DNA of 64,000 bases. It comes from Candidatus Tayloriibacteriota bacterium. GTDB lineage: Bacteria > Patescibacteriota > Minisyncoccia > Phycocordibacterales > UBA6065. Location: positions 71,297 to 135,296 of the forward strand of contig JACRJQ010000007.1 in NCBI GenBank assembly GCA_016215405.1. Direction: 5' to 3'. The stretch's first letter is position 1. Every line of letters starts with the position of its first letter. Shown here piece after piece: positions 3,728-45,808 of this stretch. Below the pieces are notes generated by a model. The model saw nothing but the letters and a program-made list of their open reading frames with translations. It ran no database searches and was not told the DNA's origin. The position numbers and the translations under genes were made by a program.

Positions 3728-4645
3728 CTAGACCTTCAGATATCTTCGTACCGCGAGATAGCTCGATATAGCGCCGAGAAGGATGCCTACGCCTATGATA
3801 AGGGCTGACACCTGGGCGAAATTGGCGGTGTAGTAGTCGAAAAGGCTGAATCCGCTGAAGAAGGTCTCAGTGATGGACGACACCCAGTACGTCACCGGAT
3901 AGAAGACGACGAGCGTGGCGAGAGCCGACACGACGCCGTACATGACGCCCGAAATCACGAACGGCCCGCGGATGTAGCGGTTAGACGCGCCCACGAGCCT
4001 CATCACCGATATCTCCTCTCGGGCGATGTAGATGGCGAGGCGTATGGTGTTGAGCGTGATGAGGATGGATATCGCGATAAGGACTATCGTTATAGCGAGG
4101 CCTATCTTCCTCGATCCGTCGATCATCCTCGTAAGAGAGTCGATAGCCGCCTTATTCTGATAGTAATTAACCTTGTCTATGAATTGGCCGTTCTCGCCGG
4201 ACTCCGAATCGAGGAATTTCGCGATGCCTTCATACTGCGAGGTCTCTTTCGCCCTTATGTTGAGGATCGCGCCAAGAGGGTTCTCTCCGAGCTCTTCGAG
4301 GGCCTGAAGGGTTATCTCGTCGTTCTCATGCTGAGCCTTGAAATTCTCGAGAGCCTGGTCGCGCGAGACGTATTCGACCTGAGCGACCTCGGGAAGAGCC
4401 TCGACCTTGTTCCTGAGCGCGAGTATCTCCTCCTCGTCGGCCGAAGGCGCGAAGTAGACGTTCACGTCGACCTTGGAGCGTATCTCGTCGAGAGACGAAT
4501 TGAGGAGAGCGCTCGCGAACATGAGAGAGCCCAGAACGAAAAGGGTCAACGTCATGATGAGGACCGAAGAGAGCGACACGAAGCCGTTCCTCCAGAACGA
4601 CACGAAGCCTGATTTTATGATGCGTCGGGTGTTGAGCCAGAACAT
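3728..4645 (-). CDS. ftsX: cell division ABC transporter permease FtsX
   Basis: 305 aa; 4 TM helices with a large periplasmic loop; immediately downstream of ftsE. Confidence 0.8.
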   Translation of the reverse strand: MFWLNTRRIIKSGFVSFWRNGFVSLSSVLIMTLTLFVLGSLMFASALLNSSLDEIRSKVDVNVYFAPSADEEEILALRNKVEALPEVAQVEYVSRDQALENFKAQHENDEITLQALEELGENPLGAILNIRAKETSQYEGIAKFLDSESGENGQFIDKVNYYQNKAAIDSLTRMIDGSRKIGLAITIVLIAISILITLNTIRLAIYIAREEISVMRLVGASNRYIRGPFVISGVMYGVVSALATLVVFYPVTYWVSSITETFFSGFSLFDYYTANFAQVSALIIGVGILLGAISSYLAVRRYLKV

Positions 4646-5419: not shown

Positions 5420-6289
5420 TTAAAGGGTTTTCTCGGCTTCGATGAAGATATCGATGTCCCCCTCGAGCACCGCGTCGACGTTCGACGTCTCGACGTCGGT
5501 CCTGTGGTCCTTGACCATCTTATAGGGGTGCAGAACGTAAGAGCGTATCTGATTGCCCCATTCGATGTCGGTAGTCTTGGAGATATACATGCCCTTCTCT
5601 TTGGCCTGGCGCTCCTCTTCTTGCCTCTTATAGAGCTTGGCTTGGAGGATGTCCATGGCGCGCGACCTGTTATCCGCCTGAGAGCGCTCAGAATCCACAT
5701 GGACAGCGATCTTCGTCGGAAGATGCACGAGCCGGACCGCGGTCTCGCGCTTGTTCACGTTCTGGCCGCCGGGACCGGACGACCGCGCGAATTCGAGCCG
5801 TATGTCGTCGGGATTCACGACGAATTTCTCGGCCTTCTCGAACTTCGGGATCACCTCTACGAGCGAGAACGAAGTATGGCGCTGCGACTTCGCGTTAAAG
5901 GGTGATATGCGGACGAGCCGGTGCACGCCCGATTCGTTCTTGAGGATGCCGTAGGCGCCCTTCCCCTCTATCTCGACCGTGACGTTCCTGTAGCCGCCGT
6001 GGTCGTTCTGGTTCTGATGGAGGAATCTCAAAGACCACCCCTTGCGGTCGAAGTACCTCATATACATCTCGAAAAGGATGCGCGAGAAGTCTTCGGCATC
6101 GTCGCCTCCCGCGCCGGAGAATATGGTCATTATGGCGTTCCCTTTCTCGTACTTTTCGACCTCCGCCATCTCGGATTTGAGCTGATTGAGCTCCTTGAGG
6201 ATCGATTGCGCTCGGTCCTTATTCTCCCAGAACTCGGCGTCGGCCATAAGGACCTCTATCTCCGCTATCCTTTTCTGCTTTTCTGACAT
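5420..6289 (-). CDS. prfB: peptide chain release factor 2
   Basis: SPF tripeptide anticodon motif (RISPFNAKSQRHTSF) and GGQ motif (SGPGGQNVNK); 289 aa; no upstream frame that would indicate a programmed +1 frameshift. Confidence 0.85.
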   Translation of the reverse strand: MSEKQKRIAEIEVLMADAEFWENKDRAQSILKELNQLKSEMAEVEKYEKGNAIMTIFSGAGGDDAEDFSRILFEMYMRYFDRKGWSLRFLHQNQNDHGGYRNVTVEIEGKGAYGILKNESGVHRLVRISPFNAKSQRHTSFSLVEVIPKFEKAEKFVVNPDDIRLEFARSSGPGGQNVNKRETAVRLVHLPTKIAVHVDSERSQADNRSRAMDILQAKLYKRQEEERQAKEKGMYISKTTDIEWGNQIRSYVLHPYKMVKDHRTDVETSNVDAVLEGDIDIFIEAEKTL

Positions 6290-6370: not shown

Positions 6371-6619
6371 AGAAGCCCCTGAAGATGGTTCCGGAACTGA
6401 CTCATTATGGCTAGATCAGCTCGCAAACCCGAACACCATAAAGGGAGAGGTCTTGCCCGTGCAGAACTGCCCGTGACCCCAGTTTCATCGAAGAGCTTTA
6501 CCGCGCGAAGACTCGCATCCGTCGATCGATCGAACCTTTCCTGACGGATGAAGAGACGCCGCTGCAGTCAAAATATCATAAACGGAAAATTAGAAAAGTC
6601 AAGGCCCGTGTAGATATTT

Positions 6620-6648
6620 TTGCAAAAAAGGAGGAAATGGCCTATAGT
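6620..6648 (+). promoter_or_regulatory. sigma-70-like promoter for the tRNA-Thr pair
   Basis: TTGCAA, 17 nt, TATAGT, about 28 nt upstream of tRNA-Thr(GGT). Confidence 0.4.
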
Positions 6649-6675
6649 AGGCTTTGTCTTTTAGATTCCGTATCA

Positions 6676-6748
6676 GCCAACTTAGCTCAGTCGGTAGAGC
6701 ACGTCATTGGTAATGACGAGGTCTCCGGTTCGATCCCGGAAGTTGGCT
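6676..6748 (+). tRNA. tRNA-Thr (anticodon GGT)
   Basis: Cloverleaf GCCAACT/AGTTGGC acceptor, D-arm GCTCAGTCGGTAGAGC, anticodon loop TTGGTAA, T-arm TCCGGTTCGATCCCGGA. Confidence 0.85.
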
Positions 6749-6788
6749 CAGGCACGATCGCCCCGACCGAAGGTCGATGGTTCGCCGC

Positions 6789-6861
6789 GCCACCTTAGCT
6801 CAGCTGGTAGAGCAATACTTTCGTAAAGTAGAGGTCCCCGGTTCGATCCCGGGAGGTGGCT
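6789..6861 (+). tRNA. tRNA-Thr (anticodon CGT)
   Basis: Acceptor GCCACCT/AGGTGGC, anticodon loop TTCGTAA, T-arm CCCGGTTCGATCCCGGG. Confidence 0.85.
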
Positions 6862-6950
6862 CAGAAAACTAAAAGCCGCTTTTGCGGACTTTTAGTTTTC
6901 TGAGCCACCTAAGAGCGATCGAATCGCTCTGTCCCGGGATCGAAGAGGTT
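6851..6950. repeat. tRNA 3'-flank mirror element (hairpin incorporating the acceptor 3' strand, plus an antisense copy of acceptor and T-arm)
   Basis: aggtggctcagaaaactaaaag-[ccgcttttgcgg]-cttttagttttctgagccacct is a 22-bp perfect inverted repeat; a downstream gagcgatcgaatcgctc hairpin follows; then cccgggatcgaa is the reverse complement of the tRNA T-loop/stem. Confidence 0.6.
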
Positions 6951-6963
6951 CTCCTATATTTCT

Positions 6964-7115
6964 GAGGGATTCCTATTCCGAAGAAATGGGAAACCTGTAC
7001 TGCGGCTGTAAGCCGAGATTCTCGGGAGGAATCGAAAGGGTTCCCTGTTGTCTTCGAGGACTTCTATCCGAGAAAACTGAAACCTATACTGCCGCCGTAG
7101 GCAAAGACCCTCGGA
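6964..7115 (+). repeat. two imperfect tandem repeats of about 62 nt (period 89)
   Basis: gagggattcctattccgaagaaatgggaaacctgtactgcggctgtaagccgagattctcggg versus gaggacttctatccgagaaaactgaaacctatactgccgccgtaggcaaagaccctcgga. Confidence 0.5.
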
Positions 7116-7292
7116 TCGCATCCTGAATTATTTTGCTTTCGTAATACCTCCAAGCGGCCTGTCGTTAACTTCCCTCCCGCTTAAGCTTTTATACCCATCA
7201 TGAAAGACGTCTTCTGGGCATTCTTCTCCCTTTTCTATTGCATCACGATGGCGATCATCGAAAGACTGAAAGGCAAACACAGAAAATAGCCG

Positions 7293-7961
7293 CTAGAGAG
7301 GCTCCCCTCTCCTCGATCGGTTCACGAGGATGTGCGCCTGCCGCGTAGGTTCGGGAAGCCGATACCCGCGGATGCACGACCTCGCTATCTCGAGCGCCTC
7401 TTCTCTCTCGATCCCATATCCCGGGGACACGAGGATCGGATTGGCCCGCGCCTTCGATCTAAGGGCGTAGCCGATGGTCTCGCCCGTCTTCGGGTCGAGG
7501 ATCCTCTCTGTCTCGCCGACTTGCCCGGGCTCTCTATACGCGCCATACAGGCGCGACTTCGCGCAACCGATAGTTGGAATGCCTGTAAGCACGCCGAGAT
7601 GCGAGGCGATGCCCAACCGCCGCGGATGAGCTATGCCCTGGCCATCGACCATGATCAAGTCTGGCTTTTGACCAAGCCCCTCCAGACATCTCAGAAGGCC
7701 GGGGATCTCCCTAAAGGAGAGCAATCCGGGTATATACGGGAACGAGGCCTTGACCCTGACCACAGATCGATCGAGAGGCTCGAGCGACGGATACGAAAAG
7801 ACGATCATGCCGGCATAGAGATCATCCCCGAACCTGTCGGCGGACGCGTCTGCGCCCGCTATCGTCTTTGGCGGTTGCGCCAAAGGGCCGAGGACGACCT
7901 TCTCGGCGAGCCTCTTTTGCATCTCTATGGCCCTCTTCGGCGCGATATTCCATTCTGTCAT
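7293..7961 (-). CDS. nfi: endonuclease V (deoxyinosine 3' endonuclease)
   Basis: 222 aa; conserved VDGQGIAHPRRLGIASHLGV and GCAKSRLYG regions typical of Nfi. Confidence 0.85.
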   Translation of the reverse strand: MTEWNIAPKRAIEMQKRLAEKVVLGPLAQPPKTIAGADASADRFGDDLYAGMIVFSYPSLEPLDRSVVRVKASFPYIPGLLSFREIPGLLRCLEGLGQKPDLIMVDGQGIAHPRRLGIASHLGVLTGIPTIGCAKSRLYGAYREPGQVGETERILDPKTGETIGYALRSKARANPILVSPGYGIEREEALEIARSCIRGYRLPEPTRQAHILVNRSRRGEPL

Positions 7962-8019
7962 GGCGTCAAGAATCGGTTATAGGTAATATTACGACGTACG
8001 CCCTCCGCCCGTATCCGCA

Positions 8020-8616
8020 TTGAAACAAACGGCTGGGCAGAGGCGTAATACACTAGGCATGAGCATACAGACACGTACTATTCCCGCGGAGACCATAGAG
8101 CGCGCTAAAAAAGGCGACCTCTTCGCCTTCGAGGAGATCGTGGCGGAATTCGAAAAGCCTCTCTGGAACTATCTAGTGAGGCTTTCTGGCAGCCGCGACG
8201 ACGCGGAGGACCTCATCCAAGATACGTTCGTAAAGGTGTACAAGCACATAAAGACGATCGACCCGTCGAAGAACATCAAGTCTTGGATCTATACCATCGC
8301 CACGAACACCGCTTACGACTATCTGCGAAAAAAGAAGAGAGAGGCGCTGGTAGAGCTCGACGACGAGCACGAAACAAACGGCGACAGCGTCTCGTATAAT
8401 TCAATAGCGATAGAGGAAAACATGGAATCCAAAGACGTTGCGGCCGCTATTGAACGGCTGGACGCTTTGTATAAGGGCCCGATCCTCCTCTATTACAAAG
8501 ACGGCTTTAGCTACGAAGAGATAGCGCAGATGCTCTCCATACCGATAAACACCCTCAAGACCCGGCTCTCCAGAGCGAAAAAGCAGCTTGCGACATTACT
8601 TGTCAATTACCAATAG
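8020..8616 (+). CDS. RNA polymerase sigma-70 factor, ECF subfamily
   Basis: Region 2 (DLIQDTFVKVYKHI...WIYTIATNTAYDYLRKKKRE) and region 4 HTH (SYEEIAQMLSIPINTLKTRLSRAKKQL); the true start may be the internal MSIQTRT. Confidence 0.8.
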   Translation: MKQTAGQRRNTLGMSIQTRTIPAETIERAKKGDLFAFEEIVAEFEKPLWNYLVRLSGSRDDAEDLIQDTFVKVYKHIKTIDPSKNIKSWIYTIATNTAYDYLRKKKREALVELDDEHETNGDSVSYNSIAIEENMESKDVAAAIERLDALYKGPILLYYKDGFSYEEIAQMLSIPINTLKTRLSRAKKQLATLLVNYQ

Positions 8617-8617
8617 A

Positions 8618-8998
8618 ATGACTCAAGAAAAACTCAACTTCGAACATCCGGTAGCATCCCTCGCGGACGAGCCATTGCCTTCGCACCTCCACGGCAAGAT
8701 AATGAAGCGCGTATTTTTGGCAGGATACGGCAAATACCTCTACCTCTCGGCAGGCGTGCTCTTCCTCAACCTCTCAGTCCTCGGAAGCCAGCTCTGGAGG
8801 GTATTCGCCCATCCGCAGAACCTCGCCGCCCTAAAATCGCTCTTCGGGAAATTCGATCCGTCCGTCCTCACGACGATCATGCCTGTAGAGTCCCTCGTCG
8901 CGACGGCCCTCTCGACCACCATATCCGCATACCTAACCTTCGTCTTCATAAAGCTCTATCGAGACTGGAAATCGTACGGAGCGGCCCAGAGCGCCTAG
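8618..8998 (+). CDS. putative anti-sigma factor / small membrane protein cognate to the ECF sigma
   Basis: Directly follows the sigma gene with a stop/start overlap; one TM segment; the ORF-track start at 8588 overlaps the sigma gene and is reassigned to ATG 8618. Confidence 0.4.
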   Translation: MTQEKLNFEHPVASLADEPLPSHLHGKIMKRVFLAGYGKYLYLSAGVLFLNLSVLGSQLWRVFAHPQNLAALKSLFGKFDPSVLTTIMPVESLVATALSTTISAYLTFVFIKLYRDWKSYGAAQSA

Positions 8999-9012
8999 CC
9001 ACCAGAGAGACG

Positions 9013-9046
9013 AAAAAGCCGGAGCATAACGCCCCGGCTTTTTCGT
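9013..9046. terminator. bidirectional intrinsic terminator
   Basis: aaaaagccggagcataacgccccggcttttt, a hairpin flanked by an A-run and a T-run, between convergent genes. Confidence 0.5.
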
Positions 9047-9064
9047 CTCGCGCCCTACTCCGTC

Positions 9065-9262
9065 CTACTCTTGGGTCCCAGAGGCGCCCTCATCCTGACC
9101 GTTCCCTCCCGGGAGGTTTACCTCGAGGGACGCACCGGCATCGGGACCGCTGTCGATGGGGGCGCCGCCGCGGCGATCGACTATAAACCAGACTATGAAG
9201 CCCACAACTACCACGAGAAGCACCACGAGAATGGCGTTCGCAGTCGAATCGTTATTATTCAT
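9065..9262 (-). CDS. small hypothetical membrane protein (65 aa)
   Basis: single hydrophobic helix (AILVVLLVVVVGFIVWFIV); weak call. Confidence 0.3.
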   Translation of the reverse strand: MNNNDSTANAILVVLLVVVVGFIVWFIVDRRGGAPIDSGPDAGASLEVNLPGGNGQDEGASGTQE

Positions 9263-9424
9263 GCGTGTTATCGATAACCTTCCTAAATGGAAGCTACAGA
9301 TAGTACGTAAGCGCCGCAGGAGAGGTGTCAGGGCGGGACTCGGTCACAGGTCGTTTTCTGCTGAAAACGCCCGCCACCCCGCCTCGCGCTTTACGGATAT
9401 GCTCCCAGCATATCCTCACGCTCC

Positions 9425-9487
9425 GGCTTTCGAGTCCCTACTCCGCAAAGCAAAAAGCGTCCGAGAATGGACGCTTTTTGCTTTATG
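9425..9487. repeat. tRNA 3'-flank mirror element downstream of tRNA-Asp
   Basis: 16-bp perfect hairpin aaagcaaaaagcgtcc/ggacgctttttgcttt adjacent to the tRNA 3' end; ttcgagtccc at about 9429-9438 is an antisense copy of the tRNA-Asp T-loop/stem. Confidence 0.5.
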
Positions 9488-9562
9488 CGCGAGTGACGGG
9501 ACTCGAACCCGCGACCTCTTCCGTGACAGGGAAGCGCTCTAACCAAACTGAGCTACACCCGC
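9488..9562 (-). tRNA. tRNA-Asp (anticodon GTC)
   Basis: Minus-strand cloverleaf GCGGGTG...CTTCC-CTGTCAC-GGAAG...GCGGGTTCGAGTCCCGT-CACTCGC-G. Confidence 0.85.
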
Positions 9563-9640
9563 ATGCTGGGATATTTAAGCATAAACGGCCTTAAAAATCG
9601 AGAGTCTATCGACCCTTCGCTTAAGATCGCTTACCGCTTG

Positions 9641-9714
9641 TGTCGGGGGAGGGATTCGAACCCTCGACCCCAGGCTTATGAGTCCTGTGCTCTAACCAAC
9701 TGAGCTACCCCGAC
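9641..9714 (-). tRNA. tRNA with CAT anticodon (elongator Met or Ile2/lysidine)
   Basis: Acceptor GTCGGGG/CCCCGAC, anticodon loop CTCATAA, T-arm GAGGGTTCGAATCCCTC; an A31-G39 mismatch in the anticodon stem. Confidence 0.75.
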
Positions 9715-9941
9715 GGTTTTCATAAGATATCACGGCAAGGCCCCTTTTCCAAGATTTATTTGACAATTTATACCGTTTATTATTTGAAATACGATCTGAA
9801 AGAAAGCACATCCTACCCCCGTACTAACAGGGTGTACTTCCGATGATGGCAAATCAGGCGCCCCTCTGGGCGCCTTTGCCATTGAAACAAAGGGCTAAAA
9901 TAGGGTGTATTATTAAAGACTATCAATAAGCTAACAATTCT

Positions 9942-10427
9942 ATGAATAGGAATTCTTGGATCGCGGTCGTAGTTATCGTCATCCTCATCGTCCTCGGCAT
10001 ATTCATGTTCCGATCGGACGACGCGGCCGCGCCAGGCGAAGGCGACGCGACGAGCACTCCCCTCTCCGGAACGACGACCGTAAGGCCCTACGGCCAGGTG
10101 ACCCTCAAGCTCGGCGAAACGGCGGCGTTTCGAGGGATAACGTTCAGGCCGACCTCGATAATCGAAGATTCTAGGTGCCCTCAGGACGTCCAGTGCATCC
10201 AAGCCGGCACGGTGCGCGTGAACGTCGAATCGGAGCTCGACAGCGGCGTAACGCGCCAAGACGCTATCGGCCTTAACGCGACCTCGACGATCGACACCTT
10301 CCGGATATCGCTCGTCCGCGCCGAGCCTGCGACTTCGGCCGGTAAGACGATACCGAACTCCGATTACAGGCTCACGTTCGAGGTGAGACAAGGAGCCGTG
10401 ACGGATAGCGAGCTTATAGGAAAATAG
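9942..10427 (+). CDS. hypothetical secreted/membrane-anchored protein
   Basis: 161 aa; N-terminal TM/signal anchor (IAVVVIVILIVLGIFMF); no family recognised. Confidence 0.5.
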   Translation: MNRNSWIAVVVIVILIVLGIFMFRSDDAAAPGEGDATSTPLSGTTTVRPYGQVTLKLGETAAFRGITFRPTSIIEDSRCPQDVQCIQAGTVRVNVESELDSGVTRQDAIGLNATSTIDTFRISLVRAEPATSAGKTIPNSDYRLTFEVRQGAVTDSELIGK

Positions 10428-10450
10428 CGAGCCCGACTCCAAAGCCGCCC

Positions 10451-11221
10451 TCAGGCGGCTTTTCGCTGTCCGATCTCGAAATCGAGATAGACCGGAGAGT
10501 GGTCGGAGACGACATCGGGAAGGACTTTGAAGTCTTTCACTTCTATGTCCTCCGATACGAAGACGTAGTCAGCAAACCGATGCGGCTTCTTGTAGACCTC
10601 CGTGCGGGTCGAAGCGATGCCGTATTCCTTTATGAGATTCCTCATTCCCGCCCTTTCGATCACGCGTATGCTCTCCGTATCGGGTAAAAGGTTGAAATCC
10701 CCCATGAGGATCTTCGGACAGTCGAACAGGGACATGAACCTCACGATGGCCTCTGACTGAAGGAGCCTCTTCGAGCTATCGCCCTTCCCCTCAGGACGGT
10801 GTGTGAGATGGGCATTGAGGACGAGTAGGCTCTTTCCCTTCATCTCGATCTCAAGCCACTGGAGCTTTCTGTTATGGTCGCCCTTGCCGTCATAATCGCC
10901 TCCATGCCAGTCGCCGCGGGCCACGAGAGCCTCTCCGAAGCTTATGACCTTGATATCTGGCCTCATAAAAGCCGAGAGGCCATATATGTCCCGAAAGGTC
11001 GGACAGAAATAATCCTTATAGGGGGTAAGGAGGGCCGAAAGCGTCTGGTTAAGGGAGAAATCGGGTTTCTCGTATCCGCCGATGGCGACGAACTCCTCTT
11101 CCTTCTTCGAGTTATAGACCTCTTGAAAAAGCCAGAGGTCTACGTCGCGATAGCGATTGAAAAATCCCGAGAAACGATCCTTCATCCTGCCGCCCCAGGC
11201 GTTAAGCGTCACGATCTTCAT
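10451..11221 (-). CDS. endonuclease/exonuclease/phosphatase (EEP) family protein
   Basis: 256 aa; MGDFN and SDHSPV catalytic motifs typical of EEP-fold enzymes. Confidence 0.7.
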   Translation of the reverse strand: MKIVTLNAWGGRMKDRFSGFFNRYRDVDLWLFQEVYNSKKEEEFVAIGGYEKPDFSLNQTLSALLTPYKDYFCPTFRDIYGLSAFMRPDIKVISFGEALVARGDWHGGDYDGKGDHNRKLQWLEIEMKGKSLLVLNAHLTHRPEGKGDSSKRLLQSEAIVRFMSLFDCPKILMGDFNLLPDTESIRVIERAGMRNLIKEYGIASTRTEVYKKPHRFADYVFVSEDIEVKDFKVLPDVVSDHSPVYLDFEIGQRKAA

Positions 11222-11386
11222 AGGGAAAGTATAGCAAAAGACGCCTTACTGGACGTTTGTCATACATCTTGCGGAAGGGTTTGAATTATCATGAATCGCT
11301 AAGTCTTTTGCTGCAGAAGCCAGCAAAAGCCCAAGTGTTCGCGATCCCGCCTCGCCCGTCTCGCTTCGCTCGACATGGCTGCGACC

Positions 11387-11477
11387 TTCAAATCCAACCC
11401 GACGAACGTCTCAGGCGTTCGTCTCCCGCAACAAGCATGAAAAAAACCGCTATCAATAGCGGTTTTTTTCATGCTTG

Positions 11478-11484
<7 letters not shown>
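11387..11484. repeat. tRNA 3'-flank mirror element downstream of tRNA-fMet
   Basis: Perfect palindrome gcaacaagcatgaaaaaaaccgctat/atagcggtttttttcatgcttgttgc includes the tRNA 3' end; an antisense acceptor copy cccgcaaca; a gacgaacg...cgttcgtc hairpin insertion; an antisense T-arm copy ttcaaatccaaccc. Confidence 0.55.
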
Positions 11485-11551
<67 letters not shown>

Positions 11552-11641
11552 ATAGTTACTACGTAACTCCCTTAACAAAGGGGTAACGAGCATTATACCA
11601 GAGCAAAAACCCCTAATCAAGCCCGTCTGCGAGCCACAGGG

Positions 11642-12223
11642 CTATATATGATAGAACTCCGAGAATACCTGCTTATATTTGTCTATGACCGCTTTGGCCT
11701 CTCTTTCATTCAAAGGGTAGCTCGACCCGTCGTGAGCAATGCGATTCCTCACTCCATGGGCCTCTTGGGCGAGCTGGAGGGTGAGGAAATCACCTTTGGC
11801 GATCCCTCGGAACTTCTCAGCCATAGTATCCCCTTGATAGCCCATCTTATCGAGCATGCTATCGAGCATGATATCGGCCTCGAGGATAGCGAGCCTCCAG
11901 TCCGAAGGATTGTTCGAATTGATGTGGGCCACGACCTTCTGCCACTTCTCGACCATCTCCGTATCCTGGCCCGGCTGGTTCGCCGCATCCTTCGCCTTAA
12001 GGGCTTCGAACTCCTCCTTCTCCTTCTCTTCGAGCTGCTTTATGCGGATATGGGAATAGACTATTACAAAAAAGAGGAAGAGCGACACGATGATCGCGAT
12101 AGGCTTCAGTATATCGAGGAAGGCTATGAGCCTATTGAGAAGCGCTACTATATCGAAATTCTTGAAGAATTCGAAGATCCTCAAGAACAGGTATTCGAGA
12201 TTGAGAAAGTTTACCGCGTCCAT
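11642..12223 (-). CDS. hypothetical membrane protein (operonic with gatCA)
   Basis: 193 aa; N-terminal hydrophobic segment then a charged helical region; ends 4 nt from the gatA start. Confidence 0.5.
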   Translation of the reverse strand: MDAVNFLNLEYLFLRIFEFFKNFDIVALLNRLIAFLDILKPIAIIVSLFLFFVIVYSHIRIKQLEEKEKEEFEALKAKDAANQPGQDTEMVEKWQKVVAHINSNNPSDWRLAILEADIMLDSMLDKMGYQGDTMAEKFRGIAKGDFLTLQLAQEAHGVRNRIAHDGSSYPLNEREAKAVIDKYKQVFSEFYHI

Positions 12224-14016: not shown

Positions 14017-14517
14017 CTAATCGAGGCACAGGCACGCTCCATACATGCCGTCCGCGGTCGCTTGCGCCGAGCACGCGATATAAGGGGAGGTCGCCGGCCT
14101 CGTTAGATAGAGATGGAGGACCGCCCGCGTAGCGGGGGCCGTGCATCCTCCGTACGTGCCTACGCGGTAATAATAGGACTTGTAGGCGCTGGTATTCTCC
14201 GGGTCTCGGATAGGCGAAGCGAGATAGCCTCCCGAGACCAGATTCGACATAAATCCCGCCCCCGCGGTATAGCTTTCGGCCCAGCCGTCCCCTCGGTCGG
14301 GCGTCGCCGGGGGATACACGTTCCCGCTGTCGTTTAGATAGAGCGATATCGCCGTCCTCAGCGACTGCATGTCGGCGAGCCTGCGCGCATCGCGAGCCCT
14401 CGAGCGCGAAGCGTTGAGGCTAGAGAGGACCACGGCGGAAAGCAGGGAGATTATCGACACGACCACGAGAAGCTCGATAAGGGTGAATCCTCTTTTTTTG
14501 CGTAGCAGACTATTCAT
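14017..14517 (-). CDS. type IV pilin / pseudopilin (prepilin-type N-terminal methylation domain)
   Basis: KKRGFTLIELLVVVSIISLL class III signal peptide; C-terminal Cys pair. Confidence 0.8.
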   Translation of the reverse strand: MNSLLRKKRGFTLIELLVVVSIISLLSAVVLSSLNASRSRARDARRLADMQSLRTAISLYLNDSGNVYPPATPDRGDGWAESYTAGAGFMSNLVSGGYLASPIRDPENTSAYKSYYYRVGTYGGCTAPATRAVLHLYLTRPATSPYIACSAQATADGMYGACLCLD

Positions 14518-14518
14518 C

Positions 14519-16546
<2,028 letters not shown>

Positions 16547-16560
16547 CTATAAAGCGAGGT

Positions 16561-17091
16561 CTAGTAGGATACTTTGAGGGCCCTCTCCACCCTTCCCTTA
16601 TCGGTCGTATCGCACGTGTTATACCCTCGGGAATCTATCTCCGTCTTTATGATCCCAGAAGGAGCGGTCTTGGTGACGGTCACGATCGCGCAGTATGCCG
16701 CGGGAGAGTTCGGTATCGTGAGCGAGAATTGCGTAACGGCGGAATTGCTCGTCCTGGAGAGATAGTTGGTGACGTTTATCGTCTGCGGCGTCCCGATGGT
16801 ATCGACGCAGTCGGGGTTCGAAGGCGACGGAGAGTGAGTGGACGACGACGTGGCGAATACGCCCGTACCCTTGAAATCCCAATAGAGAGCGCACTCGGCC
16901 CCCGTGTCGGCCGCATAGAAGGCGAATTGGGATTCGCGCCCCGAGGAGGAAAGGAGGAGCTCCTTTACCGTGAGGTTGAATATGGAAAGGCCGATCGAGA
17001 GGAGGACGCTTCCGGTGAGCACGGCGAAAAGGAGCGCGAAGCCCTTCTCCTCCCTGATCCCTGAAGCCGGATGTTTGATGGGATATCTCAT
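16561..17091 (-). CDS. pseudopilin-like protein (minor pilin)
   Basis: EKGFALLFAVLTGSVLLSIGLSIF N-terminal hydrophobic helix resembling a degenerate prepilin signal; Thr/Ser-rich. Confidence 0.45.
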   Translation of the reverse strand: MRYPIKHPASGIREEKGFALLFAVLTGSVLLSIGLSIFNLTVKELLLSSSGRESQFAFYAADTGAECALYWDFKGTGVFATSSSTHSPSPSNPDCVDTIGTPQTINVTNYLSRTSNSAVTQFSLTIPNSPAAYCAIVTVTKTAPSGIIKTEIDSRGYNTCDTTDKGRVERALKVSY

Positions 17092-17092
17092 A

Positions 17093-17719
17093 TCAGAAAT
17101 TGAACATATACTCCTTCACGGTAAAGGTCTTAAGCGGGGTGAAGAGCGTGGTCGTCCAAGAGACCGTCACAGATACCGCCGCCTCCTTCGATGACGCCCT
17201 GTCGTCTATGGAGACCGTCCTCGTGAAAGGAGTGGTCCTCCATGTCGAGCACGAGCCTGAGCAGTATCCGTAGACGCTGTTCGCGTTATCGAACGAGAGC
17301 GCGGGACAGACGCCCGACGGGCAGGACGTCACCGCGTTCGGATTCGTGAAATCGGTATAGCGCGCGTCTATGGCGCACCTCTCGCCGAGGCCGGTGTCTT
17401 TGCACGCGGTGAGAGGGTTGAGCCAGGACGTATTGGTGATGCGGTTCGAATCTCGTATGTTCCTCACGTATTCGACCGCCTCTTGGGCGAGATAGAAGGC
17501 TGTTATCTGGTCGCGGGCATAGATGGCGGAACCTACTCCCTTTTGGGCGATGATGAGGGGGCCCGTGATCGCGAGGGAAAGTATGGAGATCGCGACCATA
17601 GCCTCTATGAGCGTGAATCCGCGCCGCGGACCGATCGCGGATTTCGAGCTAAAGGCCGTGAAAAGCAAAAGGGCCTTTCTTCCCGCTATCTTTTTCCCGG
17701 CTCTCGATTCTTTGTTCAT
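17093..17719 (-). CDS. prepilin-type N-terminal domain protein (minor pilin)
   Basis: RRGFTLIEAMVAISILSLAI motif. Confidence 0.65.
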   Translation of the reverse strand: MNKESRAGKKIAGRKALLLFTAFSSKSAIGPRRGFTLIEAMVAISILSLAITGPLIIAQKGVGSAIYARDQITAFYLAQEAVEYVRNIRDSNRITNTSWLNPLTACKDTGLGERCAIDARYTDFTNPNAVTSCPSGVCPALSFDNANSVYGYCSGSCSTWRTTPFTRTVSIDDRASSKEAAVSVTVSWTTTLFTPLKTFTVKEYMFNF

Positions 17720-17728
17720 GGTTCTTCT

Positions 17729-18340
17729 TTAGGAGTCTATGGCCCTCTGGGAGATGGTCGTCTGGATGTTGAACTCGGACTTCGTCTTGCCAGTGCCCGC
17801 GTCCCCCTTAAGCGTCATCACCACCTTAGGCTGTAGCCCGTCGTTCGCCGCCGTGCCCGTCACGTAGAAGCGCAAGAGGGTTATGTTTATGTCGCTCGCC
17901 GTTATGTCCGTCGTCGAAGGTATCGTACCGTATACCCTTTTCTGTATCCTGCCAGAGACGAGGCTATATTCTATCTGATCGTTAGCGTCGGCAGAGTTAT
18001 AGTTCCCGTCGCCGTCGATATCGCGGTTCGCCTTATAGCGGAAGACCGAGCCTCCAGACTGGCAGCTCCCCGACCCGTCGCAGACGTAATTGAAGCCGAC
18101 GCGGGTGTCTCGGGCCATCGACTCCAGCGCGAAATTGAGGTTCGTCATGACTGACTTCAGCGTATGGGTCTTTTTGTTCGCCTCGACGATCGAGAACACG
18201 GAGCCGGTCGCTATGAGCATGACCATCGCGAATATGGAGACGGATACGAGGACTTCGACGAGCGTGAAAGCCCGCTCTCCCTTCCCTGCCTTAGATCGTA
18301 GATTGATGTTGTTCATACTAGTTGCATACAGCTCCCGCAT
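17729..18340 (-). CDS. prepilin-type N-terminal domain protein (minor pilin)
   Basis: GERAFTLVEVLVSVSIFAMV motif; the start is probably the internal MNNINL. Confidence 0.65.
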   Translation of the reverse strand: MRELYATSMNNINLRSKAGKGERAFTLVEVLVSVSIFAMVMLIATGSVFSIVEANKKTHTLKSVMTNLNFALESMARDTRVGFNYVCDGSGSCQSGGSVFRYKANRDIDGDGNYNSADANDQIEYSLVSGRIQKRVYGTIPSTTDITASDINITLLRFYVTGTAANDGLQPKVVMTLKGDAGTGKTKSEFNIQTTISQRAIDS

Positions 18341-19022
18341 CCACCGATACGGATATCTGACCTGTCGACTCTACGGTCACCTTCCTCTTCGTGCCCGACG
18401 GCGACGACACGCAGATCTCGGCCTTTCCGTAGCTCGTCCCCTGTATGCCGCCGGCGCGGATATAGGCGTCTGGATTAGGTCTCACGAAGGAGATATCGAC
18501 GACCGAGTTCGAGCAGTTTCCATCGACGCAGACCTTGCTTATGGCGTTACCCTTCTGTATGCGGAAGGTCTCGACGGATATGTCGCTGCCGTCGTAGACG
18601 TGGTTCGGCACGCCTCCGGACTTCACGTCTTCGAATATGAAATAGGTCGAAGGGTTGGTGAGGTCGAAATGTATCCCGTATCCCGAATCGAACTTGGTGG
18701 CGTCGGCCGAGGTCTGCCTCACGATGATGCCGTAGAACTGGGCCTGACGGACGGAGAGCGCGACCTCATAGGCGAGGTTCGTGAGGATGACGGTGCCGTT
18801 GAATTTGGAATGGTTGAAGACCGCGACCGTCGTTATGAGAGAGAATATGCTAATAGACACGAGGAGCTCGACCAAGGTGAAACCGCCTCCTGTCGCCTTT
18901 TTAGCGAGACCCTCGTTCCTTCCTGCTGAAAAGACGCTCCGCTCGCGCCGTCGCGCCGCGCAAGGTTTTCTAAAAAAGGGCTCTCGCTTGCCTAGGAAGA
19001 TGGGACGCATAGTCCTCATCAT
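18318..19022 (-). CDS. prepilin-type N-terminal domain protein (minor pilin)
   Basis: GGGFTLVELLVSISIFSLIT motif; the long leader suggests an alternative start. Confidence 0.6.
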   Translation of the reverse strand: MMRTMRPIFLGKREPFFRKPCAARRRERSVFSAGRNEGLAKKATGGGFTLVELLVSISIFSLITTVAVFNHSKFNGTVILTNLAYEVALSVRQAQFYGIIVRQTSADATKFDSGYGIHFDLTNPSTYFIFEDVKSGGVPNHVYDGSDISVETFRIQKGNAISKVCVDGNCSNSVVDISFVRPNPDAYIRAGGIQGTSYGKAEICVSSPSGTKRKVTVESTGQISVSVDAGAVCN

Positions 19023-19825
19023 TATACAGCCAAAAACGAAAGGATGGCCTGGATATCTATGCGGAAAAGGAGCGACAGGAGGAATCCGACTATCATGAAA
19101 GGCCCAAAAGGTATCTCGCTTTTAAGCCCGAGGCCTCGCCTCGACCTGATCTTTTGGATCGCCATAGCCGCGAAAGCGAAGGCCGCTCCCGTCCAGAAAG
19201 ATAGAAGGACCGAAGCGACGCCTGCAGAGAGGCCCAACGCCCAGCCGATCGAGAGCGCGAGCTTCGCGTCGCCTAATCCCATCCACGTGCCCTTCGAGAC
19301 GAGCCAGAAGAAGCCGAAGAAGGCGAAGAGCGCGGGGCCCGCCGCGAGGCGCCCGAAGTCCAAGGTTCCCGTCGCTGCCCACTCGACGCCCAAGAGCGCG
19401 AGAGCGACGGCCGCGGCGCCGTAGGAGAACTCGTCGGGGATGATCTTGTGCCGAAGGTCATAAGCCGTTATGGCGATATAGAGGAATAGAAGCGCGGCGA
19501 GCAAGGCGAAAGAGGCGACGCTGAGCGCGCCCTGCCCGGGAAGCGCCCAAAGGTACGCGGCGAGTGCCGCGAGCCCGCCGGATATCTCGATCGCGGGATA
19601 TTGCCAAGATATCTTCGAGCGGCAACCCTTGCACCTGCCTCCCTGAAAGAGGAACGAGAAGATCGGGACGAGCTCGTACCAAGAGAGCGTCTTTCCGCAG
19701 GAGAAGCACTTCGACCTGCCGCGCGAGATCGACGCGCCTGTATCGAAGCGCAAGACGACGACGTTAAGGAAGCTCCCGATGATGGCGCCGAATACGAATA
19801 TGGAGGCGAAGATGAAGTGGTCCAT
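19022..19825 (-). CDS. pilD: prepilin peptidase (A24 family)
   Basis: 267 aa; N-terminal Zn-binding CxxC...CxxC (CFSCGKTL...CKGCRSK) and polytopic membrane domain. Confidence 0.85.
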   Translation of the reverse strand: MDHFIFASIFVFGAIIGSFLNVVVLRFDTGASISRGRSKCFSCGKTLSWYELVPIFSFLFQGGRCKGCRSKISWQYPAIEISGGLAALAAYLWALPGQGALSVASFALLAALLFLYIAITAYDLRHKIIPDEFSYGAAAVALALLGVEWAATGTLDFGRLAAGPALFAFFGFFWLVSKGTWMGLGDAKLALSIGWALGLSAGVASVLLSFWTGAAFAFAAMAIQKIRSRRGLGLKSEIPFGPFMIVGFLLSLLFRIDIQAILSFLAV

Positions 19826-20223
19826 TAGCGCTGGGACTTGTAGTTCGCGAGGGATCCCGAGGAGGCGCTCGTGCAGGTAGCCGAATCGTTCGGTATACCG
19901 GCTTCGAGCTTTACCCCGATGCAGTAGTTCTTGTTCGAGTTCGCGGGCAAGTATTCATACGCCGTGCCCAAAGGATCTCCTGGAAGCGACGGCAGATATT
20001 TCTCTGTGACGAGGGTGTTAAGGCTCGCGGGATATACCTTATTGACGTCGAAGTAGAGCGCGAGACCGAGCTCGATCTCCTTCATGTCGCTTATCCTCTT
20101 CGTGTCGCGCGCCTTCCCTCTCGACGCGTTCGTCGCGCCGATGACGACCGAGGTGAAGATGCCTATGATGGCGAGGACTATGAGGAGCTCGACGAGGGTG
20201 AAGCCCCTTTTGTTTGTTTTCAT
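19825..20223 (-). CDS. type IV pilin
   Basis: KRGFTLVELLIVLAIIGIFT prepilin signal. Confidence 0.8.
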   Translation of the reverse strand: MKTNKRGFTLVELLIVLAIIGIFTSVVIGATNASRGKARDTKRISDMKEIELGLALYFDVNKVYPASLNTLVTEKYLPSLPGDPLGTAYEYLPANSNKNYCIGVKLEAGIPNDSATCTSASSGSLANYKSQR

Positions 20224-20286
20224 AGAGCGATTATATCAAAGCAAAACCGCCCGCAAAAGCGGGCGGTTCGCCATATCGCTAGGATA

Positions 20287-20733
20287 TTACGGGCAGGCGA
20301 CGGTCGACGAGGAGTACGTCGTAGCCGCGAGACCCTTCGAGTTTCCGGTCGAGTCGACGCACCATGCGACGCTCGTGCCTTCAGCGGTCTTGAGAGCGGA
20401 GAACGCTATCCAGCCAGCCGAGGTCGAGTTGCAGCCGTAGTTCGAAGCGCCGAGAGCCGTAGCCGAGTAGGTAACGCCAGCGGCGGAACCTGCTGCGAGA
20501 ACGCCCTTCCATACGTTAGGGTCTCCACAGACCGTTGCGTAGCTGTTAGGCGAAGCGTTGTCATAGACGAGCTCTGCCTGAGCGCGGATGTTGTTAAGGT
20601 TCGCCTTAACAGCGGCGTTAGCGCCCTTTGCGCGAGCCGTGTTAAGCGATGCGAGCACGACAGACGAGAGTATGCCGATGATCGCGATCACGACGAGGAG
20701 CTCGATGAGGGTGAAACCCTTGTTCTTGTTCAT
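20287..20733 (-). CDS. type IV major pilin candidate
   Basis: NKGFTLIELLVVIAIIGILSSVVL; Ala/Ser-rich 148 aa with a C-terminal Cys pair; long 5' UTR. Confidence 0.8.
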   Translation of the reverse strand: MNKNKGFTLIELLVVIAIIGILSSVVLASLNTARAKGANAAVKANLNNIRAQAELVYDNASPNSYATVCGDPNVWKGVLAAGSAAGVTYSATALGASNYGCNSTSAGWIAFSALKTAEGTSVAWCVDSTGNSKGLAATTYSSSTVACP

Positions 20734-30833: not shown

Positions 30834-30919
30834 ATATTAAGCGCGCTTCTATGTCGCTAATAGTAGCAGGTATAAGGAGAGGTATCGAGGGCGGGGTTCG
30901 AACGCGAGCCTTCATTTGG

Positions 30920-31005
30920 CGGAGACGGAGAGAATTTCGGTCCTTACAGGACCAGTACCCCGATTGGCGCGAGTACGCGGCTCAATCGGGCTTCGAATCT
31001 CTCAC
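30920..31005. repeat. 86-bp direct repeat, copy 1 (duplicated tRNA-Ser mirror element)
   Basis: Identical to 31076-31161 by eye. Begins with ggagacggagaga, antisense of the tRNA-Ser 3' end; ends with ttcgaatctctcac, antisense of the T-loop/stem; two internal hairpins. Confidence 0.8.
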
Positions 31006-31075
31006 ACCCCTATCGATGATTCGGTCACAGGTTTTCGCTTGCTAGCGAAACCCGCGACCCCGCCTCGCGCCGTCG

Positions 31076-31161
31076 CGGAGACGGAGAGAATTTCGGTCCT
31101 TACAGGACCAGTACCCCGATTGGCGCGAGTACGCGGCTCAATCGGGCTTCGAATCTCTCAC
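31076..31161. repeat. 86-bp direct repeat, copy 2 (tRNA-Ser mirror element)
   Basis: Same 86 bp as copy 1, period 156. Followed by a gcaggcgtaccacgcctgc hairpin and a sense-strand ctcgtctccgcca. Confidence 0.8.
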
Positions 31162-31227
31162 GCAGGCGTACCACGCCTGCTCGTCTCCGCCAAACAAAAA
31201 ACGGCACTTTCGTGCTCGTTTTTGTAT

Positions 31228-31319
31228 TGGCGGAGACGGAGAGATTCGAACTCTCGAACCAGTTTTACCCGGTTAACACCTTAGCAAGGTGCCGCTTTCG
31301 ACCACTCAGCCACGTCTCC
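31228..31319 (-). tRNA. tRNA-Ser (anticodon GCT), CCA encoded
   Basis: Type II tRNA. Acceptor GGAGACG/CGTCTCC, anticodon loop TTGCTAA, long variable arm, T-arm CGAGAGTTCGAATCTCTC, G73 plus CCA. Confidence 0.85.
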
Positions 31320-41898: not shown

Positions 41899-41972
41899 GC
41901 GCCTATAGCTCAGTTGGTTAGAGCATCGAGCTTATACCTCGAGGGTCCTTGGTTCGAGTCCAAGTAGGCGCA
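41899..41972 (+). tRNA. tRNA-Ile (anticodon TAT)
   Basis: Acceptor GCGCCTA/TAGGCGC, anticodon stem TCGAG/CTCGA with loop CTTATAC, T-arm CTTGGTTCGAGTCCAAG. Confidence 0.8.
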
Positions 41973-41980
41973 CCGACATA

Positions 41981-42005
41981 AAAAATCCGCCTCGGGCGGA
42001 TTTTT
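41981..42005 (+). terminator. intrinsic terminator after tRNA-Ile
   Basis: aaaaatccgcc-tcg-ggcggattttt. Confidence 0.6.
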
Positions 42006-42116
42006 ACCCGGTGCGAGACGGAACCGAAGGCGTTTCAACCGACAGCGAAAACGATCCTCAGCCACATAGAAGAAGCGGTAGCGAGGGTTTATCAAGCGAG
42101 GCTCTTCTCTGAAAAG

Positions 42117-45105: not shown

Positions 45106-45495
45106 GGGGATGATCGGCCTAGACATGCGATTCCCTTCCCTTTGCGCGCGATAGAGCTCCGACAACTCTTTAAACTGCCGGAAACCACAAATGCTAAATC
45201 CGTTAAATCGCCGTTTACGGCTAACGATTTTTCATTCGCTTACGCAATAGCCTAAGCGACATCGCACTCCTCGCATTCCTGGCGCGGGAGAGAGCGGTGT
45301 TATAGATCCAGGATAGAGCCCGACCCGCTTCGGTCCCGCTCGAAAGGCTTCGGCCTCATGAAGCTCGGCGCCCGCGCGTTCTGGAACTCTTAGAGCGCGT
45401 CCGCTTAAATCCGCCTTCGGCGGAAAGACTTCCTACATCGCGTAGACACAATCGGAAATTTCGCTTGCACCCGAGTTCGATTCTCGGCATCTCCA
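45106..45495 (+). ncRNA. ssrA: tmRNA (ssrA), one-piece; encoded tag ANDFSFAYAIA
   Basis: Begins GGGGAUGAU 15 nt after smpB. The 5' GGGGAUG pairs with the 3' CAUCUCC including a G3-U70 wobble and A73 discriminator (alanine identity). T-arm CCGAGUUCGAUUCUCGG precedes it. An in-frame GCU AAC GAU UUU UCA UUC GCU UAC GCA AUA GCC UAA (45220-45255) resembles the E. coli ANDENYALAA tag. Confidence 0.75.
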
Positions 45496-45590
45496 CAAAG
45501 CAAGTCGCCCGCAAGGGCGGCTTTTGCTTTGTGGAGATGAGTCGTGCCGGGGGGGGCACGACGTCCGAGAATCGAAGCCCGGTTGAGCAT
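45488..45590. repeat. tRNA-like 3'-flank mirror element downstream of tmRNA
   Basis: catctccacaaagcaag-[tcgcccgcaagggcgg]-cttttgctttgtggagatg long hairpin including the acceptor 3' strand; then gtcgtgcc-gggggg-ggcacgac hairpin; then ccgagaatcgaa, antisense of the tmRNA T-arm. Confidence 0.5.
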
Positions 45591-45808
45591 AATTTATGAG
45601 CAAAGCGAAGTAAATTATCCAACCGCGGGTACTGGTCCTGTAAGGACCGATAAGCGCACTCGCGATCTCGGCTCCACTGCACCATCACCCTTATCCGCGA
45701 TTGGTATCATATATGATACCAATCGTAATCTAACGGTCTGAGGGATCGCGCGTAACCGATGCTCAGACAAATGTATTACACTAAAATGCGAGAACATAAC
45801 ATCCACAT

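Follow-up and report, generated by a model that had tools for sequence, protein, structure and literature searches.

Hairpin-split mirror copies of tRNA 3' ends in Patescibacteria, possibly the proximal arms of a small non-coding insertion element

In a 64-kb stretch of DNA from a Candidatus Tayloriibacteriota genome (assembly GCA_016215405.1, contig JACRJQ010000007.1, positions 71,297 to 135,296; hereafter, the window), the tRNA-Thr(CGT) gene is followed by an inverted copy of its own 3' part, termed the mirror, that is interrupted by a hairpin. This feature is genuine, recurs systematically and is common throughout one bacterial superphylum. We consider the mirror a candidate for the tRNA-proximal arm of a non-coding, non-autonomous, Patescibacteria-specific insertion element of ~100-250 nt that resides at the 3' ends of tRNA and tmRNA genes, in which it would aid target recognition, and assign this reading a probability of roughly 0.45. 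Small mobile tenants of tRNA gene ends are a familiar kind of element; an architecture that mirrors the target is not.

Genes for tRNAs in the window were called with ARAGORN and an Rfam covariance search, and the conserved, hairpin-rich part of the element beyond the mirror, termed the body, was detected with R1, a covariance model of the type-A body built from 86 copies. The parts of the tRNA-Thr(CGT) locus, in which P3 denotes one of the element's hairpins, are as follows.

6789-6862, plus strand: tRNA-Thr(CGT), the host gene (ARAGORN; Rfam tRNA model, 62.1 bits)
6842-6848, 6849-6853, 6854-6860 and 6861, plus strand: T-loop, T-stem 3' strand, acceptor 3' strand and discriminator of tRNA-Thr(CGT), respectively (from the sequence)
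6854-6910, strandless: palindrome around a terminator-like hairpin with A-run and T-run flanks (from the sequence; 12-nt exact block; RNA fold)
6911-6931, strandless: hairpin P3 and flanking bases, with the stem at 6913-6919/6923-6929, lying between the mirrors of tRNA positions 66 and 65
6932-6944, strandless: T mirror tcccgggatcgaa, ending at the complement of T54 (13-nt exact match)
6929-7026, minus strand: type-A body nearest tRNA-Thr (R1, 48.9 bits, E = 1.2e-11)
7027-7112, minus strand: second type-A body, in tandem, more decayed and farther from tRNA-Thr (R1, 18.9 bits, E = 0.0035)

The arms of the palindrome are perfect over 22 bp, with 6854-6875 (aggtggctcagaaaactaaaag) forming the reverse complement of 6889-6910. 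The left arm comprises the acceptor 3' strand, the discriminator and the trailer of tRNA-Thr(CGT), the right arm is their mirror, and a ccgc-tttt-gcgg hairpin (6876-6887) is nested between the two, with a bulged A at 6888. P3 (gagcgat-cga-atcgctc, 6913-6929) follows, and then tcccgggatcgaa, which is the exact reverse complement of tRNA positions 54-66. An initial annotation of this DNA had described both the perfect inverted repeat with its nested hairpin and the hairpin-split reverse complement of the T-loop and T-stem, and both were confirmed in the sequence. It covered only the first ~90 nt of a feature that spans ~250 nt, and the hairpin it called D-arm-like has no D-arm features, being instead a family-wide insert of fixed length. 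Farther out, the nearest type-A body reads on the plus strand as a long hairpin (P2), gtact (6997-7001) and the hairpin P1 (gcggc-tgtaa-gccga, 7002-7016), after which comes a decayed direct copy of tRNA positions 57-69, gattctcgggagg, at 7017-7029. RNA folding of a read-through transcript of the locus places the tRNA 3' half onto the mirror (z = -9.3). A 29-codon open reading frame (ORF), MKDVFWAFFSLFYCITMAIIERLKGKHRK, was also observed at 7199-7288 on the plus strand, in the gap that separates the distal Thr element from the nfi stop codon.

The seven tRNA genes and the single tmRNA gene of the window are arranged in six transcription units, namely Thr-GGT with Thr-CGT, Met with Asp, tRNA-Met(CAT) at 11477-11551, Ser-GCT, Ile-TAT and the tmRNA. 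When the reverse complement of the last 32 nt of each gene was compared with the 400 nt downstream of every window gene (exact matches, k >= 8), the mirror cover of a gene by its own downstream region was 21 nt for Thr-CGT, 21 nt for tRNA-Met (11477), 23 nt for Ser, 21 nt for the tmRNA and 10 nt for Asp, compared to at most 11 nt in all cross-gene comparisons; tRNA-Ile(TAT) had only a 7-mer match. The recurrence of the same architecture at Asp, tRNA-Met (11477), Ser and the tmRNA, as initially annotated, is thus borne out and lies far beyond chance, and the central inference of that annotation, a systematic mechanism with each instance matched to its local gene, holds. R1 detected five type-A bodies in the window (one at the tmRNA, two at Ser and two in tandem at Thr); a weak match at 1687-1794 is not an element. 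Relative to those in other genomes, the mirrors in the window are unusually complete.

A complete copy, read in the tRNA sense, begins with an intact tRNA gene and a short trailer, followed by a terminator-like hairpin with an A-run and a T-run, the mirror of the trailer, discriminator and acceptor 3' strand, and then P3. Its distal half consists of the mirror of the T-stem 3' strand and of the T-loop to T54, then P2, GTACT, P1 with its TGTAA loop, and a direct repeat spanning tRNA position 56/57 to a few bases beyond the discriminator. In all cases the mirror consists of two blocks, with the break between positions 65 and 66, and its end point is invariably the complement of T54. The palindromes formed by gene and mirror have arms with a median of 22 bp and a maximum of 30, and the mirrored trailer is perfect even where the inner hairpin is imperfect, as at the Met and tmRNA loci. 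G+C-rich terminator-like hairpins with an A-run and a T-run were visible by eye at every locus, whereas a simple scanner omitted those at Thr, Asp and tRNA-Met (11477). From its sequence, the hairpin at the palindrome centre would read as terminator-like on both strands. The terminator sequences differ among otherwise near-identical elements, implying that the hairpin is local or fast-evolving. A termination module copied from the gene, one of three explanations offered in the initial annotation, is therefore only partly borne out: the palindrome centre holds a terminator-like hairpin, but a copied module fails to account for the variation of the terminators among near-identical elements and for a conserved part that lies beyond the mirror.

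Within the body, structure is better conserved than sequence. The base stem of P2 covaries heavily, one example pair being C-G in 41 copies, A-U in 31 and G-C in 11, and P1 has at least 14 distinct Watson-Crick stems around an invariant loop. P3 has the consensus AC-GCAAG...CTTGC-T with covarying stems and a fixed position; the insert measures 22-26 nt in 20 of the 24 measurable copies and is shorter or absent in the remaining 4. The P1 20-mer core, GGTCCTTACAGGACCAGTAC, is found in an 87-nt unit at the Ser locus and also after the tmRNA mirror. There is a second body type, type D, with the form GGTCAC...CGACCCCGCCTCGC, which occurs as GAYTCGGTCAC...CCCGCCTCGCGC after the Asp mirror and between the two Ser units. 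Its layout is GAYTC/GGTCAC, hairpin, CGCGACCCCGCCTCGC, hairpin, CTCCGGCT/TTCGA, its flanks and position are as in type A, and it is fusible with type A; it was observed at 9337-9389, 31018-31070 and 11300-11386 of the window and, among loci of other genomes, at L003, L004, L021, L025, L029, L037, L041, L087, L088, L097 and L111.

Three counts, each small and drawn from phylogenetically related copies, bear on which strand folds: folding energies favoured the tRNA-sense strand in 74 of 96 copies, arm mismatches favoured it by 71 to 32, and isolated 1x1 mismatches read on the opposite strand were A-C in 12 cases and G-T in 3, again favouring the tRNA sense. The folding strand thus appears to be the tRNA-sense strand. 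Folding of the opposite strand had been considered on the basis of a G-U pair in an RNAalifold consensus, but was dropped, since this pair proved to be a bulge and the three other counts favour the tRNA sense. The element, at 100-250 nt, contains no ORF. At one locus (L025, 5452-6000), a type-A element is split within P2 by ~350 nt; the opposite strand of this insert contains a basic ORF of 65 aa, which had no significant Pfam match.

We then turned to the relation of the flanks to the host gene. Scored at 79 loci in other genomes, the mirror had a mean score of 12.8 against its own tRNA compared to 8.2 against other tRNAs, and the distal repeat scored 12.0 and 5.6, respectively. Intactness was counted at 76 loci: the acceptor mirror was intact (>= 7/8 positions) in 24 and the distal repeat (>= 10/13 positions) in 34, with 0/76 for the non-cognate control in either case, and both were intact in 9. 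The T-loop/T-stem mirror had at most 2 mismatches over 12 nt to the adjacent gene in 68 of 79 copies. The match to the local gene first noted in the window consequently holds against other-tRNA controls in other genomes as well. At G-U sites, the mirror followed the 3' strand over the 5' strand by 9 to 2 in the T stem and by 7 to 1 in the acceptor, and the distal repeat did so by 5 to 0. These results imply that the flanks are direct and inverted copies of the 3' part of the gene, and on the same grounds a mirror copied from the tRNA 5' strand was rejected.

The distal repeat often includes 2-5 trailer bases of the gene, and a CCA was present in the repeat but not the gene in five cases and the reverse in five. 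Since trailer bases are common and there is no consistent CCA signature, the distal repeat is a DNA-level copy and not a copy of mature tRNA, and copying of mature tRNA through an RNA intermediate, with primer-binding-site logic, was rejected on this evidence. Where the distal repeat departs from the tRNA, the mirror agrees with the tRNA at 127 positions and with the repeat at 8, indicating that mirror and distal repeat are not kept complementary to each other; together with the 9 of 76 loci at which both parts are intact, this led us to reject a tRNA-like minihelix under selection. The distal repeat behaves as a decaying scar. We found no clear case of a distal repeat derived from a different tRNA, as might mark a donor locus. 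All host genes were called as full tRNAs, the tRNA gene staying intact.

Two further observations concern these ends. The bases after the discriminator are CA in 109 and CCA in 26 of 165 tRNA genes (loci L002-L111 plus the window, e.g., 6861-6863, 9487 and 11477), and it is unusual for N73-CA to be conserved when the full CCA is not encoded. In a few mirror copies (L048 at ~4406-4500, L084 at ~7631-7726, L037 at ~1342-1480, and L087), the T-loop reads TTCTCNTC and not TTCGANTC, GA at positions 57-58 having been swapped for its reverse complement TC while the adjacent tRNA retains GA; the swap might reflect a crossover of 2 nt or a site that is deliberately left unpaired.

In a genome collection comprising one genome per species, GGTCCTTACAGGACCAGTAC was found in 110 DNA stretches, and all records among those listed were metagenome-assembled genomes (MAGs) of Patescibacteria, including Parcubacteria/Paceibacteria, Kaiser-, Taylor- and Nomurabacteria, and MAGs labelled Saccharibacteria. 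A tRNA or tmRNA lay within 600 nt of 79 of the 116 copies, on one side and in the same relative orientation in 79 of 79, and these hosts cover 34 tRNA types plus tmRNA. Copies with no tRNA nearby were mostly at contig ends, or beside a tmRNA or a tRNA remnant. Another 21 copies, with different P1 stems, were detected by the model alone; these share the orientation of the others, none being same-strand, and 7 had no nearby tRNA. In every case examined, the element sits at the last gene of a tRNA operon.

Comparison with relatives revealed sites that lack the element. In L112 (GCA_035546035.1), whose endonuclease V is 64% identical to that of the window, the gene order is as in the window (sigma factor, nfi, two tRNA-Thr genes, prfB, ftsE, ftsX), and its tRNA-Thr(CGT) has an identical 3' end, yet only 25 nt separate it from the nfi stop codon, with mirror and body absent. 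Similarly, its tRNA-Asp has a plain terminator and lies 85 nt from the same small downstream gene, compared to 225 nt in the window. R1 had no hits in L112, L114 or L116. Presence in some genomes and absence at the same site in relatives implies that the element is dispensable. This weighs against precursor 3'-end processing or protection as an essential function, another of the explanations initially offered, as the mirror is missing from relatives whose tRNA-Thr(CGT) 3' end is identical; moreover, RNA folding suggests that a read-through transcript would unfold the tRNA. For the processing idea, this absence in relatives matches part of what the annotation itself had named as refuting evidence.

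Evidence consistent with spread was found in the bodies. P2 hairpins 88-94% identical to each other occur beside different tRNAs (Asp and Arg-TCG, Gly-CCC and Leu, Ser-GCT and Ser-TGA), one such pair (Arg-GCG and Gly-TCC) being inside a single genome, and in each case the flanks of the near-identical pairs match the local gene. Arrays occur at the Ser and Thr loci of the window and at L050, L038, L097, L024 and L099; judged from model scores, the array copy nearest the tRNA scored higher in 4 cases, tied in 2 and scored lower in 1. Solo copies, with no adjoining tRNA, have only 3-8 nt of acceptor mirror past the hairpin. One conserved sequence, GCGGTGTGTnTGGACAAAGTTCGAATnTATTTCGArCAAAA, follows solo elements in two separate MAGs, at L030 (minus strand, ~150 nt past the element at 235-319) and at L057 (past 1798-1901); it contains a T-loop-like TTCGAA hairpin and was not called by ARAGORN.

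Searches for a known identity or a partner were negative within their scope. At the gathering threshold, Rfam matched only tRNA and tmRNA in the whole window. When the Ser locus and 6600-11700 were scanned by E-value, nothing beyond hairpin hits at chance level emerged, so that in these scans the element matched no Rfam family, HDV-like/theta ribozymes that follow tRNAs, tmRNA fragments and Y RNA included. A description of the family was not found in full-text searches of the literature on tRNA-gene mobile elements of Patescibacteria, tRNA-like RNAs or hairpin attP sites, and there was no match in 50,697 phage records or IMG/VR that would point to a phage or viral origin. When 1216 ORFs from the 110 loci, each of up to 8 kb, were clustered, they proved to be housekeeping neighbours only, none of them enriched, and the window genes examined are likewise housekeeping.

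Among the explanations initially proposed, an element that targets and copies tRNA T-arm and acceptor sequence fits best, in view of the body, the distal repeat, the arrays, the solo copies, the empty sites and the near-identical bodies beside different tRNAs. For such an insertion element, both the enzyme and the mechanistic steps are inferred. Its hairpins may act in single-stranded form, on the tRNA-sense strand of the nucleic acid, where an enzyme encoded at another site would recognise them, with the mirror forming part of target recognition. The mirror might supply the complementary arm when a single-stranded attachment site folds so as to imitate the duplex of the tRNA gene, in the manner of CTX-phi attP or integron attC, or it might pair with the target strand and so act as a guide, in the way that the left end of IS200/IS605 elements such as IS608 does. 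New tRNA specificity could arise if the universal T-loop served as a common foothold and the gene-specific part were then copied or converted from the neighbour across the palindrome, the two candidate routes being priming at this T-loop and conversion between the palindrome arms. By analogy, the distal repeat resembles the attR or target duplication that is seen where tRNA-targeting islands use the T-loop sublocation. A stronger form of the guide idea, in which the mirror would be a built-in guide of 20-35 nt, complementary to the strand from T-loop to 3' end of the tRNA gene and interrupted by a scaffold hairpin, that steers a trans-acting single-strand transposase or recombinase to tRNA gene ends and is rewritten from the new neighbour after each hop, with the universal T-loop as its initial foothold, strikes us as quite unlikely.

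Several points weigh against an insertion element. No recombinase, transposase or other enriched protein was found beside the elements, and none of these in the 64-kb window, so that the mobilising activity is hypothetical. Neither an excised form, nor an empty and filled site within a population, nor identical copies at two tRNAs were seen, and movement is deduced only from comparison between species. Five of the six operon ends in the window are clearly occupied, with a doubtful trace at the sixth, and the 20-mer is identical across distant lineages, both of which would also fit a host function. The assignment of the folding strand is built on the small, related counts given above. We know of no element class that copies its target inverted, and no demonstrated mechanism explains either the formation of the mirror or the hairpin at 65/66.

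Given these points, it is possible that the element serves its host as an RNA module in the tRNA sense, whereby read-through RNA would carry the antisense tRNA 3' half, split by P3; while we regard this as doubtful, it is the most substantial of the alternatives. The mirror might pair with the upstream tRNA 3' half and tag read-through RNA for double-strand cleavage, or the mirror and distal repeat might form a tRNA-shaped minihelix ending in N73-C(C)A for RNase P, RNase Z and the CCA enzyme, yielding a processing signal or a stable tRNA-like RNA after the fashion of plant mitochondrial t-elements. Consistent with a host module are the apparent tRNA-sense folding, the polarity (with the acceptor-5'-like strand first and the 3' strand, discriminator and CA or CCA last), the second terminator that often follows (as at L007 and L018), and the fixed-length P3 at the 7/49-equivalent junction, where the D and anticodon arms leave a real tRNA. 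The great stability of the read-through fold (z = -9.3), the deep conservation and covariation of P1 and P2, and the presence of the element at nearly all tRNA operon ends of the window point the same way. Conversely, mirror and distal repeat do not preserve the helix that they would form (127 uncompensated differences versus 8 co-varying, and both acceptor parts intact in 9/76), the element sits behind a terminator-like hairpin with no space for a promoter of its own, and syntenic relatives with the same tRNA do entirely without it. Pairing with the tRNA 3' half would also destroy the cloverleaf, and no Rfam match was obtained (in the window at the gathering threshold, and in two regions by E-value).

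We would be considerably more surprised if the element were an independent small RNA gene, convergent to the tRNA, that ends at a shared bidirectional terminator and whose 3' domain copies the tRNA 3' half. The order of promoter side, structured body and terminator would suit such a gene, AT-rich -10-like sequences occur upstream at some loci, and the hairpins, with their symmetric A- and T-tracts, would terminate the opposite strand too, yet this symmetry follows automatically from the palindrome and is not independent evidence. Moreover, -10 boxes show no positional enrichment upstream, no promoter is predicted on that strand in the window, and mismatch patterns and folding energies favour the other strand. 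Least probable of all is a passive by-product with neither element nor function, in which replication errors of the fold-back or template-switch kind make terminator palindromes extend outward and copy the 3' end of the gene inverted. Template switching is well established as a mutational route by which quasi-palindromes are corrected, and the long near-perfect palindromes (median 22-bp arms, up to 30) and the perfection of the mirrored trailer where the inner hairpin is sometimes imperfect speak for such a by-product. It nonetheless leaves unexplained the constant end point at T54, the distal repeat, the arrays, the restriction to tRNA and tmRNA genes, and the fixed-length P3 at 65/66, which template switching would erase, and it is largely refuted by the conserved body beside every mirror, with a 20-mer identical across genomes. 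The IS110 bridge RNA, the homing spacer of CRISPR-associated transposons (CAST), the tandem interspaced guide RNA (TIGR) array, the retron and the group II intron were set aside, as their layout, size or number of copies per 64 kb would not seem to fit.

The putative insertion element shares features with several known systems. Islands and prophages of a class reportedly described by Williams in 2002 are integrated at the T-loop sublocation of tRNA and tmRNA genes by tyrosine integrases. They resemble the present element in targeting the 3' part of a tRNA or tmRNA gene that is left intact, in having a block of identity from the T-loop to just beyond the 3' end with a displaced or duplicated copy at the far side, in accreting in tandem at the same gene, and in also using tmRNA. 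In contrast, the present element measures only ~100-250 nt and encodes neither an integrase nor anything else, at least 34 tRNA types are used by a single family, and it has an extra, hairpin-split inverted copy of the target and a conserved hairpin-rich body. Lacking an integrase and having the extra inverted copy, it does not belong to the T-loop-island class. The XerCD site attP(+) of CTX-phi and integron attC are alike in that two inverted target-like copies in one strand can fold into a site-like duplex, structure is conserved over sequence and one strand matters; the target here is a tRNA gene end, not dif or attI, and there is no phage or cassette cargo. We infer this likeness to folded attP and attC sites as a functional analogy, the topology being all that is seen here.

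Palindrome-associated transposable elements (PATEs) derived from IS200/IS605, as well as repetitive extragenic palindromes (REP) and bacterial interspersed mosaic elements (BIME) with Y1 HUH transposases, are similarly small, non-coding, hairpin-forming on one strand, and intergenic beside terminators; they are mobilised in trans, and the internal guide of IS608 pairs with the flanking target. Unlike the present element, with 20-35 nt mirrored and ~20 nt directly repeated, the IS200/IS605-type elements recognise 4-5 nt and neither duplicate nor mirror the target. As in t-elements, mascRNA and YrlA, an acceptor plus T-arm minihelix can be drawn from mirror and distal repeat, with a hairpin at the site of the D and anticodon arms, but here there is no conservation of the pairing, the helix is an exact and not a generic copy, matching the neighbouring tRNA, and the T-loop is interrupted by ~75 nt. 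Finally, the element is short, non-coding and multi-copy, as is a miniature inverted-repeat transposable element (MITE), but its inverted "termini" copy the local tRNA and not a constant element sequence, and its direct repeat is ~20 nt.

If it is an insertion element, it would be the smallest known tenant of tRNA gene ends and the first known example with an inverted target copy that is matched to the local gene, found beside 34 tRNA types and tmRNA. This raises the question of how 150 nt of geneless DNA acquires the sequence of each new target, and solving it could uncover a new activity, for recombination or for template switching, in the reduced genomes of the candidate phyla radiation, one that might be programmable. 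Should the mirror act as a guide, this would be a naturally reprogrammable ~150-nt insertion system that copies its target, with no known counterpart, while a host function would instead define a new structured RNA class tied to tRNA operon ends. A considerable part of the intergenic DNA near the tRNA genes of these small genomes consists of the elements, and their perfect palindromes, with arms of up to 30 bp, may break assemblies; they are worth masking and annotating in Patescibacteria MAGs.

The remaining members in the window, one of them uncertain, are listed below.

9320-9486, minus strand: element behind tRNA-Asp (gene 9487-9562, minus strand; repeat family D8, mirror match)
11290-11476, minus strand: element behind tRNA-Met(CAT) (gene 11477-11551; mirror match)
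30917-31227, minus strand: array behind tRNA-Ser(GCT) (gene 31228-31319; families D2 and D8, R1 hits)
41975-42040, plus strand: weak, decayed mirror behind tRNA-Ile(TAT), an uncertain member with only cggtgcg and a T-loop-like ccgaagg left
45497-45660, plus strand: element behind the tmRNA (gene 45106-45496; mirror match, R1 76.3 bits at 45561-45658 on the minus strand)

The Asp element contains a terminator palindrome and only part of the acceptor mirror, together with the T mirror gggactcgaa (9428-9437), a type-D body at 9337-9389 (GAYTC/GGTCAC...CCCGCCTCGCGC) and a decayed direct copy, gagtcccg. At tRNA-Met (11477), a palindrome with 27-bp arms is accompanied by an acceptor mirror (11425-11435), P3 (11401-11424), the T mirror gggttggatttgaa (11387-11400) and a D-like body that includes cgcgatcccgcctcgc. 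The Ser array, from the tRNA outward, comprises a palindrome, an acceptor mirror (31182-31193), P3, a T mirror (31148-31159), a type-A body, a direct copy of the tRNA 3' end (31075-31089), a truncated type-D body (31018-31070), a second T mirror (30992-31003), a second type-A body and, at its outer end, a direct copy that includes CCA (30917-30933). The 87-nt type-A unit is present twice in this array with 100% identity, and R1 matched it at 31085-31163 and 30929-31007 (67 and 66 bits). The tmRNA element has a palindrome, an acceptor mirror (45528-45539), P3, a T mirror (45565-45576) and a type-A body.

While annotating the window, we also noted features with no direct bearing on the element. 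A tRNA-Ile with anticodon TAT (UAU) is encoded at 41899-41974; in most bacteria, AUA is read by a modified CAT tRNA instead of tRNA-Ile(UAU). The tag peptide of the tmRNA (45106-45496), AKSVKSPFTANDFSFAYAIA, has an AIA ending and not the common LAA, and a kindred tag, AKNSTSPYFGAKDFSFAYAIA, is present in L004. A release-factor gene at 5420-6289 (minus strand) with PCRF and RF-1 domains was called at only 289 aa, with the PCRF match beginning at profile position 97, which would fit the usual programmed +1 frameshift of prfB, the first part being in another frame. Lastly, a 26-nt motif, ACGAGGAGCTCGAyraGGGTGAArCC (family D1), occurs five times within a run of minus-strand ORFs at 14465-20718, and these ORFs are probably paralogous genes beside a type IV pilus/T2SS-F cluster.

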